Shown one piece after another: positions 1 through 23,197 of a stretch of 44,824 nucleotides of DNA (its first letter is position 1; the number at the start of each line of letters is the position of its first letter). Made by a program: the position numbers and the translations under genes. The stretch spans positions 1 to 44,824 of IMG/VR virus record IMGVR_UViG_2778261573_000004; one strand, given 5' to 3'. Below the pieces are notes generated by a model. The model made no database searches and was not told where the DNA came from. It saw only the letters and a program-made list of their open reading frames with translations. Origin of the DNA: a virus (taxonomy: Duplodnaviria > Heunggongvirae > Uroviricota > Caudoviricetes).

Positions 1-549
1 TCAGCTAGCTGGAAACTTTTTATACAGAGTTGAGAGCCCTACTCCATACGTTTTTGATACGCTTTGTCGTGATTCACCGGTTGCCATCCGCTCCCCCATT
101 TCCCGCCATTGCTCATCCGTGAACTTAGGCCTGCGACCACCAACTCGCCCTTTTGCCCTGGCTACGGCCAGCCCTGCTAAGGTACGTTCGCTATTAAGAT
201 CAGATTCATATTGTGCTGCGGAAAGGATGTTACGAAAGTTATAGCGGCCGCTGGCTGTTTTGAGATCCACGCCATCGGTAATACTGCGGAAGTTGATACC
301 CTTTTCCTGTAACTGCTGGAACATCAACAGCGCATGCAGAACGTTGCGGCCTATCCTGTCCAGCTTCCAGACCACCAGTTCATCCCCCGGCTGCATAGTG
401 GCGATCAGCCGTTTTAGAACCGGCCGATTCGATTTCCTCCCGCTGGCATGCTCTTCAAAAATTTTCTCACAACCCGCTGACTTGAGCGCCGTTAGTTGCA
501 ATTCAGTGTCCTGGTGGTTTGTTGATACTCGGGCATAACCGTAAATCAT
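1..549 (-). CDS. pin: Serine recombinase, DNA invertase (Pin/Gin/Hin/Cin family)
   Basis: Protein from MIYGYARVSTNHQDTELQ has the resolvase-type N-terminal catalytic Ser motif and a C-terminal HTH; ATG at 549-547 with RBS AGGAGA upstream; lies next to an invertible tail-fibre segment. The longer ORF to 708 is rejected as an upstream extension. Confidence 0.9.
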   Translation of the reverse strand: MIYGYARVSTNHQDTELQLTALKSAGCEKIFEEHASGRKSNRPVLKRLIATMQPGDELVVWKLDRIGRNVLHALLMFQQLQEKGINFRSITDGVDLKTASGRYNFRNILSAAQYESDLNSERTLAGLAVARAKGRVGGRRPKFTDEQWREMGERMATGESRQSVSKTYGVGLSTLYKKFPAS

Positions 550-19107: not shown

Positions 19108-21237
19108 TTATTTCGGCAGGAGTTGCGATATTCGCTTACGTTTGACCGGCGCTGGTTCTTCAATAACCGCACCCGGCAGCTCGTAATTGATTTTTTCTTC
19201 CTGTCCAACTGGCGCTGGCAGGAACTTATCCGGATCGGCTTCGAGGTTGGCGGCCCGGACGTTGAGTTTTAACCCCATATGTTTGAGACCGCACAGCGCG
19301 GCATAGCTGTAAACGAGGCAGTCAAGCGCTTCGTTAGCTCGTCCTGGTATTGCTTCCCAGATACTGTACCGCTGCCCGGAAATGACTTTGTAAACCAGTC
19401 GCTCCGCCAGCAGCTGATTGAAGTACCCGAGATCGCGATCGTCAGGAAAATGCATATAACCCGCAGCGGCGGCGCCAGGTTTGGGTGGCTCAAGATGCAG
19501 GCGACCGCGTATCACGTCTTTCGCTGAGTTAACCCCCAGAATGACAGGGCGGAAACTGGCTTTGCTTTTCGATGATGGTCGTTTGGTCGGCCAGACAGGA
19601 TTGCGTTTGCCTCCCTGTGCAGACTCCCCCTTAATTGCCCAGACACGACGGCCAAGACGCTCTTTGGCGAATTCGTATACCTTCTGCGTATGGTGGCCGC
19701 CGGAGTCCATGCACGTTGCCATGATATTCAGGCCGCGCCCGTCACCACGTCGCCAGATCTGTTTCAGGTATGCATCCAGTCGCTTCCAGGGTTCTTCCGT
19801 CTCAAGGTCACCATAAATAACGTCATGCGCGACCGACCACGATTCTTCATCTCTCCCCCAGCCGGTGATCGTAATTTCGAAGCGATCGTCCTGGGTATCA
19901 ACTCCAGCTGTTAACAATGCCACCCCGTCCGGAACGACGGCCGGAAATATTTCCCGGCGCGCCAGCAGAACATCAACAGGGAGCTGTTTCCCATGATTAG
20001 GTCGGTGCGGAAGCCCCATCTGGGTATTCCACCACGCCTGTTCCTTATCCGGATCGCCCTTCGCATCGATATATTTTTTCGCAATATCCGACGGCTTATC
20101 TTTTTGCCAGGGGCTGAAAAGCTTGGATGCCTGGTACCCCGCGTGGTGGTTATCGACTGCCTCCTTTCCACAGGAGGGGCAGATTGCGCGATAGACCGCA
20201 TGCCGTTCCGACTCTGACCATTGCCAGACCTTTTCAACGCTGCCCTCGTCTGCCGCCCGCCAGGCAAGGTCATAATCCATCAGCGGTGAGTGCCGCTCCC
20301 CGCAGCACTCAAATGGGCGCGTCTGATGCCATCGAATAGTGTGCAGAGCTCTGAGGCGCTGTCCTTCGGACCAGCCACTACCACAGCATTCGCAATAGAG
20401 CATCGCCGATTTAGTCAGGTGTTTATCTCCCTCTTTCGGCCACTGAACGTGTTTGAAAAAGTCGGGGAACTGGCGGTGGCCACAGTGCGGGCAAACCACA
20501 GATGCCCGGCGCTGATCGGAGTCGGCGTAGCTGTCAGCAATGCGGCTCTCATCCTCCACCGTCGGCGAACAGGCGCGTACAGACAGCCAGGTCAGGCCAA
20601 ATGTCGCTGTACGCTCTTCGGCCAGCGCAATTGGATCGCCTTCGCGGGTTATCGGGTACTTGTCCACTTCATCCGCCAGCAGGACACGAATCGGACGACG
20701 CGCAAGGTTATCAGGGCTACCAGCACCCGCCAGCGCCAGAAATCCGCCAGTGAATGCCTTGTAAAGAATGGTTTCTTTCGAGCTTTTCTGTTTCGAATCA
20801 CCGATGATTTTACGCAGTACCGGTGTCACCCTTACCAGCGGGCTAATACGCTCTTTCGAAAACTGTTCAGCGGCTTCTTCTTTCGGCTGCAGCAGCAGTA
20901 TCGGACAAGGATCGAGGTGGGCAAAATAGCCAAAAAGGTTTTCCAGCAGTGCTGTCTTCATCAACTGGGTACAGCACATTACAGTGATGATATGAACCCC
21001 GGACTCCGTCGCGGCAAGCATCGGTCCGCGGGCAATTTCTACCGTCGATGTTTCCCAGTTTCCCGAAGTGCTCCCAGCCTCTTTTGCCAGCTTACGATAG
21101 TCATCTGCCCACTGCGGCACACTGATACGCGGCGGGGGTGTCCAGCCTTTGCGGACGCTTAATTCAAGACGCTCAATCTTCTGCCGGGTTAAACTCTGGC
21201 TCTCCGAGGACTGAGATGTGTTTGTGGACATGTTCAA
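19108..21237 (-). CDS. Terminase large subunit, lambda gpA family
   Basis: 709 aa; ATPase and nuclease regions typical of gpA; overlaps the small subunit gene. Confidence 0.95.
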   Translation of the reverse strand: MNMSTNTSQSSESQSLTRQKIERLELSVRKGWTPPPRISVPQWADDYRKLAKEAGSTSGNWETSTVEIARGPMLAATESGVHIITVMCCTQLMKTALLENLFGYFAHLDPCPILLLQPKEEAAEQFSKERISPLVRVTPVLRKIIGDSKQKSSKETILYKAFTGGFLALAGAGSPDNLARRPIRVLLADEVDKYPITREGDPIALAEERTATFGLTWLSVRACSPTVEDESRIADSYADSDQRRASVVCPHCGHRQFPDFFKHVQWPKEGDKHLTKSAMLYCECCGSGWSEGQRLRALHTIRWHQTRPFECCGERHSPLMDYDLAWRAADEGSVEKVWQWSESERHAVYRAICPSCGKEAVDNHHAGYQASKLFSPWQKDKPSDIAKKYIDAKGDPDKEQAWWNTQMGLPHRPNHGKQLPVDVLLARREIFPAVVPDGVALLTAGVDTQDDRFEITITGWGRDEESWSVAHDVIYGDLETEEPWKRLDAYLKQIWRRGDGRGLNIMATCMDSGGHHTQKVYEFAKERLGRRVWAIKGESAQGGKRNPVWPTKRPSSKSKASFRPVILGVNSAKDVIRGRLHLEPPKPGAAAAGYMHFPDDRDLGYFNQLLAERLVYKVISGQRYSIWEAIPGRANEALDCLVYSYAALCGLKHMGLKLNVRAANLEADPDKFLPAPVGQEEKINYELPGAVIEEPAPVKRKRISQLLPK

Positions 21238-21742
21238 TCAGCACCTCTGTCATCCTGTCCGCCGGTACATCCAGATCAGCAGCCATTAGCGGCGCCACCC
21301 TGGACGGCCAGTTAAGCCAGGCATCACGCTGTTGGCGAAAGGCGTTGAATAAAACCTCCTCGGCTGCTGTCAGCTCAATAAGCTGGCCGCTGTCTTTTTC
21401 ATACTGCAGCTTTGCCTGCAGGGCCATGTAATTCTCGCGGATACGTCCCGCTTCCTCTCTCGAAAGATCTGCCCCTTCAGTGAGCATTATCTGGCGGACA
21501 GTTTTATTGATTTCATCACCGTCATCATCGTTATCGCTAACGACGGGAGTTTTCTTTTTCTTCGCGTTCGAGGCGCGCGGGTCTTTGCCATCGCGGTTTT
21601 TCTTCAATGCCGCATCGCTGGCCTCTACGTCAATCAGGTCTCCGTCCATCACAATGAAGCGCCCGGCTTTAATCCACCGGCCAATTGTTTTGCGATCCAC
21701 ACCTGAATGTTGTGCGTACTGACTCTGGTTCATCGTGGTCAT
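21173..21742 (-). CDS. Terminase small subunit, Nu1-like
   Basis: 189 aa; N-terminal HTH-like segment (QSQYAQHSGVDRKTIGRWIKAG); its 3-prime end overlaps gpA and its start sits inside the cos-like repeat cluster. Confidence 0.8.
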   Translation of the reverse strand: MTTMNQSQYAQHSGVDRKTIGRWIKAGRFIVMDGDLIDVEASDAALKKNRDGKDPRASNAKKKKTPVVSDNDDDGDEINKTVRQIMLTEGADLSREEAGRIRENYMALQAKLQYEKDSGQLIELTAAEEVLFNAFRQQRDAWLNWPSRVAPLMAADLDVPADRMTEVLIEHVHKHISVLGEPEFNPAED

Positions 21743-21890
21743 GGGACATCACCTGGGACATTTTCTGGGGTGGGACATTCGCCTGGGACATTTTTGCCAT
21801 GTCCCACCAGAATGTCCCACTGGAATAAACTGGAATAGCCAGAGCTGGCGAGGTGTCCGTAATGATCGCCAGAGGTGGGACATGGGACAC
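21743..21890. repeat. Cluster of GGGACAT / ATGTCCC motifs (cosB-like terminase small-subunit binding elements)
   Basis: Eight copies in about 150 bp: GGGACAT at 21743, 21755, 21772, 21785 and 21877; ATGTCCC at 21799 and 21812; variant GGGACAC at 21884. Lies directly upstream of and overlapping the Nu1-like start. Confidence 0.6.
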
Positions 21891-22032
21891 AAATCTGAAA
21901 GTTGTAGCTAGGAAAACACCGCGGCGCGCAATGCCCGTACCTTACAAAAGTCTCAGGAAGGACCCATTTTTTTAATGGCTTCGACCATTCGCTCCGACTA
22001 TGATTATTCCTATTCAATACAAGGAGAATGTA

Positions 22033-22536
22033 ATGGGTAACAATATAATCAAAATAACTTTCGTAGCCGCAGTGCTGGCATCACCAATTGCTCATGCCCA
22101 GTGGGTAACTAATACTGAAGATGACCTTTTCTCTGGTGGTAAGAAAGCAATGATGCTTGGCGAGGTTTCATCCGACAATGGCGCCATTGTGTTTGACTGC
22201 ACTAAAGAAAAGCTATCGGCGGCATACGTTGAAATGGATAAAAGCACCGAATCACTATCAGAGGTACCAATGGACCTGATAATGAAGGTCGACGGGAATA
22301 CCGCAGTGAAGCTCGATGCTACCCTTTCAAGACGTAATGTTCAGAGCCTCCAGATTCAATCGGATGACGCGGACCAACTAAAAACAGTGCTTAAGCAGCT
22401 TCAGGGGGCGAAATCCAAAGTGTTAGTTGGTGTGCAAACAAAGGATGGCGGAAACCAGCATTCCATGTCAGCCAATGTTTCTGGATCGACAACTGCAGTA
22501 AACAGCTTCATAAAAGCTTGCGAAATTAACTTATAA
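22033..22536 (+). CDS. Secreted/periplasmic protein of unknown function (opposite-strand moron)
   Basis: RBS AAGGAGA 5 nt before ATG 22033; N-terminus MGNNIIKITFVAAVLASPIAHAQ is a classical signal peptide (AHA-Q cleavage); convergent with all flanking phage genes. Confidence 0.6.
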   Translation: MGNNIIKITFVAAVLASPIAHAQWVTNTEDDLFSGGKKAMMLGEVSSDNGAIVFDCTKEKLSAAYVEMDKSTESLSEVPMDLIMKVDGNTAVKLDATLSRRNVQSLQIQSDDADQLKTVLKQLQGAKSKVLVGVQTKDGGNQHSMSANVSGSTTAVNSFIKACEINL

Positions 22537-22546
22537 GTTACTGCTT

Positions 22547-23197
22547 TTATTTTGCCGTCCTGATGGCTTCTGCTATCGCCTGATTTAAAGCAGACGGTAG
22601 CAGTGCGTTCGCCATGGTACGGGCCCTATCCATATACCCCAGCACTGGAGTCACAGGTAGCGCATCACCAAACCGGATCAAAAGCTTTGGAGAACGCTGT
22701 TTGCGTTTCGGTCTTCGCGTCCCGTTAGCGGAACGTTTGGCCCGTCGCTTCTTAGCTTTCATCGGCTTCTTACGCTGCCAGACAGCGTTAACGCCATCAA
22801 CCTCACCTACGAATACATTTTCCTTTGCTTTAAGCTGTGAGAGCTTATTACGCGGCAGGTTGCCGTATTTATTAAGCTTTATGTCTTTCGGGTTAAGCAA
22901 AGCACTTCCATTAAGCTTGTGCTCTCCGCCGAACTCGAAGGGTTCAAGGTAACCAGCAGCAGTATCACGAACAAACACCTTCGCACGAAGGCTGTTTTTC
23001 CTGGCACCAACTGACCCAACCGATTTAACTGTAAAAGGTGTTGGATTATCCAGATTCCGCTCAAATGCTGTTTTTTGGGCCGCTTCTATCTGGCGAACCA
23101 CTTTAGTCATAGCCTGGGCAGTCGCAAACGGTATTTGCTTCTGCAGCTGTCTTAACTGACTGGAAAGGTCCTTAAGCGTTGCCATATCATTGACCAC
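22547..23197 (-). CDS. Hypothetical phage protein with Lys/Arg-rich C-terminal region
   Basis: 216 aa ORF preceded by the terminator/promoter-like region at 23200-23262; no recognisable family. Confidence 0.5.
   Translation of the reverse strand: MVNDMATLKDLSSQLRQLQKQIPFATAQAMTKVVRQIEAAQKTAFERNLDNPTPFTVKSVGSVGARKNSLRAKVFVRDTAAGYLEPFEFGGEHKLNGSALLNPKDIKLNKYGNLPRNKLSQLKAKENVFVGEVDGVNAVWQRKKPMKAKKRRAKRSANGTRRPKRKQRSPKLLIRFGDALPVTPVLGYMDRARTMANALLPSALNQAIAEAIRTAK

Follow-up and report, generated by a model that had tools for sequence, protein, structure and literature searches.

What is the function of the cluster of short repeats that lies directly in front of the small terminase subunit gene (terS) of the tailed-phage record IMGVR_UViG_2778261573_000004, all 44,824 bp of which were analyzed here and are called the window? 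An earlier reading of the letters alone (the original prediction) had proposed that positions 21743-21935 form a cohesive-end (cos) region, composed of R-type repeats bound by the small terminase subunit (TerS) and a GC-rich cosN. We find that positions 21742-21965, read on the minus strand, very probably constitute a lambda-type cosQ-cosN-cosB site of a temperate Escherichia coli phage, and this phage combines a lambda-like head and a gpA-type terminase with a contractile tail. Numbering base pairs from the first base of the cohesive end (bp 1), the predicted elements follow one another toward terS in the order cosQ (GGGTCCT), a spacer of ∼24 bp, cosN, a 32-bp spacer resembling lambda I2, and cosB.

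The candidate cosN string of the original prediction, GGAAAACACCGCGGCGCGCAATGC, was found at 21911-21934 and contains, running from 21934 to 21923, the exact 12-nt cohesive end of the Serratia phage vB_SspM_BZS1 (BZS1); the candidate interval ends at the first base of that 12-mer. The BZS1 record is linear, with positions 1..12 annotated as "cosL; left cohesive end". For this phage, PhageTerm analysis of Illumina reads from virions predicted 5' cohesive ends with the overhang GCATTGCGCGCC, and the overhang was confirmed by comparing a polymerase chain reaction product across the prophage cos with the sequenced ends of virion DNA (PMC7556043). The BZS1 record ends with ...AAAAAAATGGGTCCTTCCCTGCACTTTTGTAAAGCACGG, i.e. 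...GGGTCCTTCC-N17-ACGG, and starts with GCATTGCGCGCCGCG..., i.e. GCATTGCGCGCC GCG. The minus strand of the window reads AAAAAAATGGGTCCTTCCTGAGACTTTTGTAAGGTACGG GCATTGCGCGCC GCGG..., so that the same 12-mer is present with the same flanks. On the basis of this identity, cosN is placed at 21923..21934 (minus strand), with a predicted 12-nt 5' cohesive end, 5'-GCATTGCGCGCC-3', identical to BZS1 cosL. Among 50,697 phage records, the core was present only in BZS1 and in the Citrobacter phage phiNP, the BZS1 match being split by the ends of its record. Recovery of these two phages from the collection required a 77-nt core query at E <= 10, and megablast and blastn searches of the same collection with the 1-kb region gave no matches.

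A second register is obtained when the site is aligned to lambda. It places the overhang at 21924-21935 (GGCATTGCGCGC), shifts the nicks one base to the left, and gives CG^G at both nicks; conserved CG flanks at the nick sites have been described for lambda-like phages (PMC4669245). We took the measured BZS1 register as primary, and we infer the exact nick positions in the prophage from it. By hand count, the rotational symmetry of cosN amounts to 6/16 symmetric positions in either register and does not decide between them.

Between cosN and terS lies the repeat cluster, which the original prediction had described as eight GGGACAT/ATGTCCC copies. The clustering in both orientations was confirmed, but the count required adjustment: seven copies in 21743-21883 are exact (on the plus strand, GGGACAT at 21743, 21755, 21772, 21785, and 21877 and ATGTCCC at 21799 and 21812), the eighth is the variant GGGACAC at 21884-21890, and one further exact copy occurs elsewhere in the 44,824 bp. 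The 7-mer shared by all eight copies, TGTCCCA/TGGGACA, was found eight times in 21742-21889 (148 bp) and twice in the remaining 44.7 kb. Because the chance expectation for a heptamer is ∼0.016 per 150-bp stretch (∼5 per whole window), the cluster is far beyond chance. We describe cosB as eight (A/G)TGTCCCA heptamers in four pairs. The distal pair, equivalent to R3, occupies 21876..21890 (minus strand, bp 45-59) and consists of the abutting tandem heptamers GTGTCCC-ATGTCCCA. The inverted pair, equivalent to R2, lies at 21799..21819 on the plus strand, with ATGTCCCA at 21799-21806 and 21812-21819, opposite in orientation to the other six copies. The proximal direct copies, equivalent to R1, span 21742..21791 (minus strand), with ATGTCCCA at 21784-21791, 21771-21778, 21754-21761, and 21742-21749; they include a 30-bp tandem duplication (D1), and a 22-nt inverted repeat joins 21770-21791 to 21799-21820. 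As had been claimed, the array reaches the start codon of the small-subunit gene, since the A of the terS ATG at 21742 is the final base of its last copy (21742-21749, TGGGACAT on the plus strand). The overall geometry is of the lambda type, with the repeats starting at bp 45-59, the inverted pair at bp 116-136, and the last copy ending at bp 193, the terS ATG. We also considered an Rfam assignment of the region and rejected it; both of its matches were far below threshold and were produced by the palindrome, and no family fits.

Two spacers complete this part of the site. The I2-like spacer between cosN and cosB (21891..21922, minus strand, bp 13-44) has the sequence CGCGGTGTTTTCCTAGCTACAACTTTCAGATTT and carries T-tracts, and its blocks GTTTTC, (C/T)AGCTA, and TTTGAAATTTG are conserved family-wide; lambda I2 extends over approximately bp 18-50 and contains poly-dA and poly-dT runs (PMC4856287). 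The internal spacer of cosB, at the position of lambda I1 (21820..21875, minus strand, ∼56 bp), includes two copies of TATTCCAGT (direct repeat D7). Its sequence varies among relatives and is very AT-rich in those from Xenorhabdus and Providencia. The 9-bp direct repeat (21819-21837; ACTGGAATA twice on the plus strand) abuts the inverted heptamer pair. Apart from one or two changes, it is mostly kept in E. coli, Kluyvera, Salmonella, and Raoultella and is absent from Rahnella, Ewingella, and Yersinia members of the same repeat class; it may be a host-factor site.

Upstream of cosN, just outside the interval of the original prediction and omitted there, is the heptamer 5'-GGGTCCT-3' (21959..21965, minus strand), a cosQ-like sequence that by analogy with lambda would act as a packaging-termination element. 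The identical heptamer is found at lambda bp 48473-48479, which we take to be the 7-bp cosQ coordinates of Wieczorek and Feiss (2001). The distance from the start of the heptamer to the cohesive end of the window is 31 nt in the BZS1 register or 30 nt in the lambda register, and it is 30 nt in lambda. Homology to many relatives ends at the outer edge of the heptamer (query position 867, approximately window position 21966), as would be expected if cos marked the end of the conserved packaging module.

The conservation of the site was assessed in a comparison set derived from a scan based on the large terminase subunit (TerL) with one genome per species (29 loci), to which five E. coli prophages, phiNP, BZS1, and two IMG/VR contigs were added, these contigs being the only 2 that matched in an IMG/VR pattern scan. 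The core scan covered 39 stretches (the window, BZS1, and 37 loci). The 12-mer GCATTGCGCGCC was exact in 28/39 stretches, all 28 of which contain GGGTCCT, and the heptamer starts 30-32 nt before the 12-mer in the 27 of these for which the offset was measured. The core-bearing genera are Escherichia, Kluyvera, Citrobacter, Raoultella, Salmonella, Edwardsiella, Rahnella, Ewingella, Xenorhabdus, Providencia, Yersinia, Variovorax, and Chromobacterium. When variable columns were counted in 11 distinct close relatives, none of the 7 columns of cosQ and none of the 16 columns of cosN with its 2-bp flanks varied, compared with 13/14 columns upstream of cosQ, 12/30 in the I2-like spacer, and 49/95 at other cosB positions. 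The eight heptamers varied at 4/56 columns, which differs from the other cosB columns with a Fisher p = 7e-9; the heptamers are conserved while the spacers drift. The invariance of cosQ and cosN across genera implies ongoing selection.

The 7-bp cosQ has been described as highly conserved (Feiss et al. 2015, PMC4669245), and in our set the heptamer was present in nearly all TerL relatives, down to ∼56% identity. The distant TerL relatives from Brevundimonas (L034), Caballeronia (L035), and an Enterobacteriaceae metagenome-assembled genome (MAG; L033), with 56-78% identity, keep GGGTCC(T/C)TCC and have different 12-mers at the cosN position, e.g. TCGGGCTGGGCG, GCACTGCGCGCG, and GAATTGCGCACC. 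Because these loci keep cosQ and change the 12-mer, cosQ is better conserved than the cohesive-end sequence in the wider family. One stretch of the set carries a Firmicute label (L022, NZ_JBQPOM010000071.1, "Vagococcus sp. WN89Y"); it contains an enterobacterial-type prophage with a TerL 87% identical to that of the window and an identical cosQ, cosN, and TGTCCCA cosB, and is probably an assembly contamination or a mislabelling.

The repeat motif was found to change together with the DNA-binding domain of TerS. The clearest pair is the window and the prophage of E. coli ECCTRSRTH03 (L006), whose TerL proteins are 92% identical and whose TerS proteins are 96% identical over residues 119-189, and only 45% and 30% identical over residues 1-50 and 51-118, respectively. 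The cosQ heptamer and the 12-mer of L006 are those of the window, with only 3 differences from cosQ to bp 44. Every repeat of L006, in turn, reads GGTAACA on an unchanged layout, in which the tandem pair keeps its position and the spacer, the inverted pair, and the direct copies reaching to the ATG follow. Across the set, TerS proteins with the helix-turn-helix (HTH) sequence GVDRKTIGRW(I/V)KAG accompany TGTCCCA (the window, E. coli HS, Kluyvera, Salmonella, Raoultella, Rahnella, and Ewingella, and Yersinia with the variant GVDRKTVSRWIKAG), and those with GVSRKT(V/I)TxWKxRGW accompany GGTAACA (Edwardsiella, Xenorhabdus, Providencia, BZS1, and phiNP), a class that carries GGTAACAGGTAACA at the position of the distal pair. 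Other TerS helices occur with other repeats, namely GGTTGACG in three copies in Brevundimonas and TTTACAC in the Enterobacteriaceae MAG. In BZS1, phiNP, and the IMG/VR contig L012, cosB is short, holding two or three copies, and the ATG of terS lies at bp 71-75. The covariation is the strongest in silico argument that the heptamers are recognition sites of TerS, and it suggests that cosB is swapped together with the TerS DNA-binding domain, as a single module, while cosQ, cosN, and TerL stay constant; the TGTCCCA cosB would thus belong to a different specificity class from the GGTAACA type of BZS1 and phiNP. The original prediction that the repeats have the geometry of cosB R elements was borne out by the location of the first pair (bp 45-59) and of the terS ATG (bp 193), the selective conservation, and the covariation with the HTH domain. 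We also noted that the final repeat copy falls between the Shine-Dalgarno sequence and the terS start codon in both specificity classes (AGGTGATGTCCCATG; GAGGTAACAATG), as examined at window positions 21742-21761 and in L006, L021, L025, L026, and L036. Speculatively, TerS binding at the last heptamer might also damp or regulate terS translation, which would be compatible with a packaging role.

In the mechanism that we propose, the predicted winged HTH N-terminal domain of TerS would bind the cosB heptamers, and the pair at bp 45-59 would anchor TerL at the fixed distance required for nicking of cosN, with the nicks 12 nt apart. The other heptamers would build or stabilize a higher-order TerS-DNA complex. 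Cleavage by TerL with the 12-nt stagger would leave the 5' overhang GCATTGCGCGCC (register ±1 nt), and packaging would proceed toward terS and terL, that is, toward decreasing window coordinates, until it stops at the next cos, where cosQ and cosN would be read.

Other explanations of the repeats can be weighed against this mechanism. The heptamers could be operators that control the late operon (terS, terL, and head genes) and are bound by TerS or another phage regulator, rather than packaging sites. Such a role would suit the last copy, located between the Shine-Dalgarno sequence AGGTGA and the ATG as is the last GGTAACA copy of the other class, and also the four central copies, which form a 22-nt palindrome typical of operators, and the predicted N-terminal fold of TerS, which resembles small MerR/Xis-type regulators. 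It fits less well with a scan of 21600-22700 that yielded no sigma-70-like promoter or terminator, with a motif that co-varies specifically with the TerS DNA-binding domain, with a first pair located at bp 45-59, the fixed nick distance that defines R3 of lambda and N15, and with the simple cosB of BZS1 and phiNP, which retains only that pair and one copy. We regard operators in place of packaging sites as unlikely; an additional autoregulatory role is compatible with the function of cosB. Less probable still is that the site serves pac-type headful packaging or that the prophage is a decayed remnant with a disused cos. A few relatives, the E. coli HS copy among them, do lie beside truncated genes, but the gpA-type TerL has both of its domains intact, defined 12-nt 5' cohesive ends occur at the homologous sequence of the nearest characterized phage, BZS1, cosQ and cosN do not vary across genera, and the window and a related locus (L001) carry a full gene set; the prophage may still be active. 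The resemblance of the short direct and inverted repeats, with their ∼13-bp and 30-bp spacing, to iteron arrays might point to a replication origin, or the array might be a functionless product of chance or slippage. We give these ideas almost no credence because the replication module (a replication protein and a DnaB-type helicase) is >10 kb away, the heptamers are conserved while their spacers drift, and the array is tied to terS, co-varies with it, and is clustered far beyond chance.

Several results weigh against the interpretation as a lambda-type cosQ-cosN-cosB site. Between the PhageTerm register of BZS1 and the register of the ungapped lambda alignment there is an offset of 1 nt, which reflects either a one-base shift of the nicks relative to lambda or an error of one base in one of the two determinations. 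Compared with the lambda overhang GGGCGGCGACCT, GCATTGCGCGCC shares 5/12 positions and GGCATTGCGCGC shares 3/12. The term "lambda-like" in the sense of Feiss denotes a 12-base cohesive end closely similar to GGGCGGCGACCT (PMC4669245); because the overhang is only 3-5/12 identical to that of lambda, the cos of the window is not "lambda-like" in this narrow sense. A scan for the consensus of integration host factor (IHF) gave no match of >=7/9 in the I1-equivalent spacer of the window and recovered the lambda I1 control (8/9); some relatives have a 7/9 match at bp 99, and members of the family repeatedly show a weak IHF-like match at bp 31, compared with one at bp 30 in the lambda control. With regard to TerS, no Pfam family reached threshold (HTH_28 and HTH_17 gave E ∼0.1), the Nu1 family PF07471 gave no match even at E <= 10, lambda Nu1 was not among the top 50 Foldseek hits of either the full-length or the N-terminal TerS model, and the only Foldseek matches of these models, to MerR/Xis-type winged HTH proteins (BldC and Pukovnik Xis), were nonsignificant (E 0.2-0.3). 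The last heptamers overlap the ribosome-binding region of terS, so that a regulatory role is hard to tell apart from a packaging one. The prophage of the window could, moreover, be defective.

Comparison with lambda shows similarities beside these differences. In lambda, R3 spans bp 50-65 and the Nu1 ATG is at bp 191, and the corresponding N15 values are bp 48-60 for R3 and bp 89 for the terS ATG; the cut made by lambda terminase lies 47 ± 2 bp from an R site, and the distance between cosN and cosB is critical (PMC9026076). The elements of the window agree with those of lambda in order and scale, and the window further has an identical cosQ heptamer ∼30 nt before the nick, a predicted 12-nt stagger, a T-tract, a first candidate TerS site at ∼47 bp from the nick, inversion of one set of sites, the terS ATG at bp 193 compared with 191, and a terS that overlaps a gpA-type terL. 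The lambda right end reads ...ACGGGTCCTTTCCGGTGATCCGACAGGTTACG and its left end GGGCGGCGACCTCGCGGGTTTTCGC..., and the flanks of the window (TACG, 12 nt, CGCGG(T)GTTTTC) align to these without gaps. Unlike lambda with its three 16-bp R sites, the window has eight 7-8-bp sites in four pairs, and it differs further in its overhang, in the lack of a clear IHF-type I1, in a TerL only 29% identical to gpA, in a TerS that is not detectably Nu1, and in the contractile tail.

With BZS1 and phiNP, the window shares the identical 12-mer, the cosQ heptamer at a 31-nt spacing, the A-tract before cosQ, the TAGCTA and TTTGAAATTTG blocks, a homologous TerL (48%), and a lambda-type head with a myovirus tail. 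It departs from them in cosB, as theirs is "simple" (three GGTAACA, ATG at bp 75) and that of the window is "complex" (eight TGTCCCA, ATG at bp 193), and in TerS, where the recognition helix GVSRKTVTxWKxRGW and the N-terminus MNQSDFAKLHGVSRKTVT... of these phages contrast with GVDRKTIGRWIKAG and MTTMNQSQYAQHSGVDRKTIGRW in the window. Packaging-specificity classes, with a complex cosB in lambda and a simple one in N15, have been described previously (PMC4669245). As in the classes of lambda, 21, and N15, a TerS recognition helix is paired with cosB R sites in the family of the window, and complex (∼190 bp) and simple (∼75 bp) layouts both occur; the motifs and proteins are different, and specificity is deduced here from covariation only rather than from helper-packaging genetics.

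The window corresponds to an E. coli prophage, is 100% identical to strain L6-21 (CP123963) over 21100-22100, and has its counterpart of this region in 59/5426 complete E. coli genomes (∼1%). In the prophage, early and lysis genes of lambdoid type are combined with a head module of the lambda type and with a contractile tail, and both the window and L001 possess the full set of head, tail, lysis, and replication genes. The terS gene (21173..21742, minus strand, 189 aa) overlaps terL and matches phrog_57 "terminase small subunit" at E = 4.6e-36; the C-terminal part of its product is conserved among relatives. The original prediction of a "Nu1" small subunit therefore stands with regard to the gene and fails with regard to membership in the Nu1 family, as no PF07471 match was found. 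In a BLASTP comparison of TerS with lambda Nu1, only a 31-aa HTH stretch was aligned (E = 0.043). Single-sequence AlphaFold modeling of TerS predicted an N-terminal winged HTH at residues ∼4-48 (beta-helix-helix-beta hairpin-helix), with a predicted local distance difference test score of 74.5 for the isolated domain. An apparent relationship of TerS to RecA (PDB 3cmu and kin) was discarded because it reflected the summing of six repeats in fusion constructs, each of which taken singly gave E >400.

The gpA-type terL gene (19108..21237, minus strand; the RefSeq start is the ATG at 21231) encodes a protein with matches to GpA_ATPase (PF05876, 2.8e-64) and GpA_nuclease (PF20454, 2.2e-78), both domains being intact. 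TerL is 29% identical to lambda gpA over 654 aligned columns and 48% identical to the TerL proteins of BZS1 and phiNP, the nearest sequenced phages. Downstream of terL are gpW and then a lambda-family portal.

The cohesive end of this type of cos is already published for BZS1, and the architecture of lambda-type cos sites with their classes of cosB and TerS is textbook knowledge. The BZS1 paper describes neither cosB nor cosQ (PMC7556043). As far as the literature consulted shows, the cosB class with eight TGTCCCA copies has not been described, cosQ, I2, and cosB have not been recognized in this family, and neither the occurrence of simple and complex cosB layouts within one family nor the modular swap has been reported. 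The lambda cosQ heptamer is conserved far beyond the classical lambda-like group, and we find it mildly surprising that the heptamer and its spacing persist despite a 29%-identical TerL and an unrelated overhang. It is conceivable, though doubtful, that cosQ is read by a deeply conserved feature of gpA-type motors and that the eight-site cosB is bound by head-to-tail multimers of a BldC/Xis-like TerS without IHF. If this were true, the assembly logic of TerS multimers would differ from that of the IHF-bent R3-R2 dimer of lambda, and the natural swaps of cosB and the TerS DNA-binding domain on a constant cosQ, cosN, and TerL would offer chimeras for finding the reader of cosQ. The site itself reveals no new kind of mechanism and reflects ordinary phage biology. 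It would be a clean natural example of packaging specificity swapped as a module of cosB and the TerS DNA-binding domain. Through it, the probable ends of the genome and the probable direction of packaging are settled for a family that is present in ∼1% of the complete E. coli genomes and in many further Enterobacterales, which is of use for annotation, for predicting transduction and hijacking by cos-bearing satellites, and for building cosmid and phage tools.

Two open reading frames (ORFs) lie on the cosQ side of the site. The ORF at 22000-22536 (plus strand) encodes 178 aa with a signal-peptide-like N-terminus, matches phrog_19473 (function unknown), and is missing from relatives or differs there; it has the look of a cargo gene ("moron") that was inserted at the right end of the genome. 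Just upstream of cos and terS, the ORF at 22547-23197 (minus strand) encodes a 216-aa protein that matches phrog_1924 "minor tail protein" and occupies the same place as phiBZS1_p72, whose conserved position away from the tail genes was remarked upon by the BZS1 authors (PMC7556043). Relatives of the window carry homologous genes, labeled "hypothetical", at the equivalent position.

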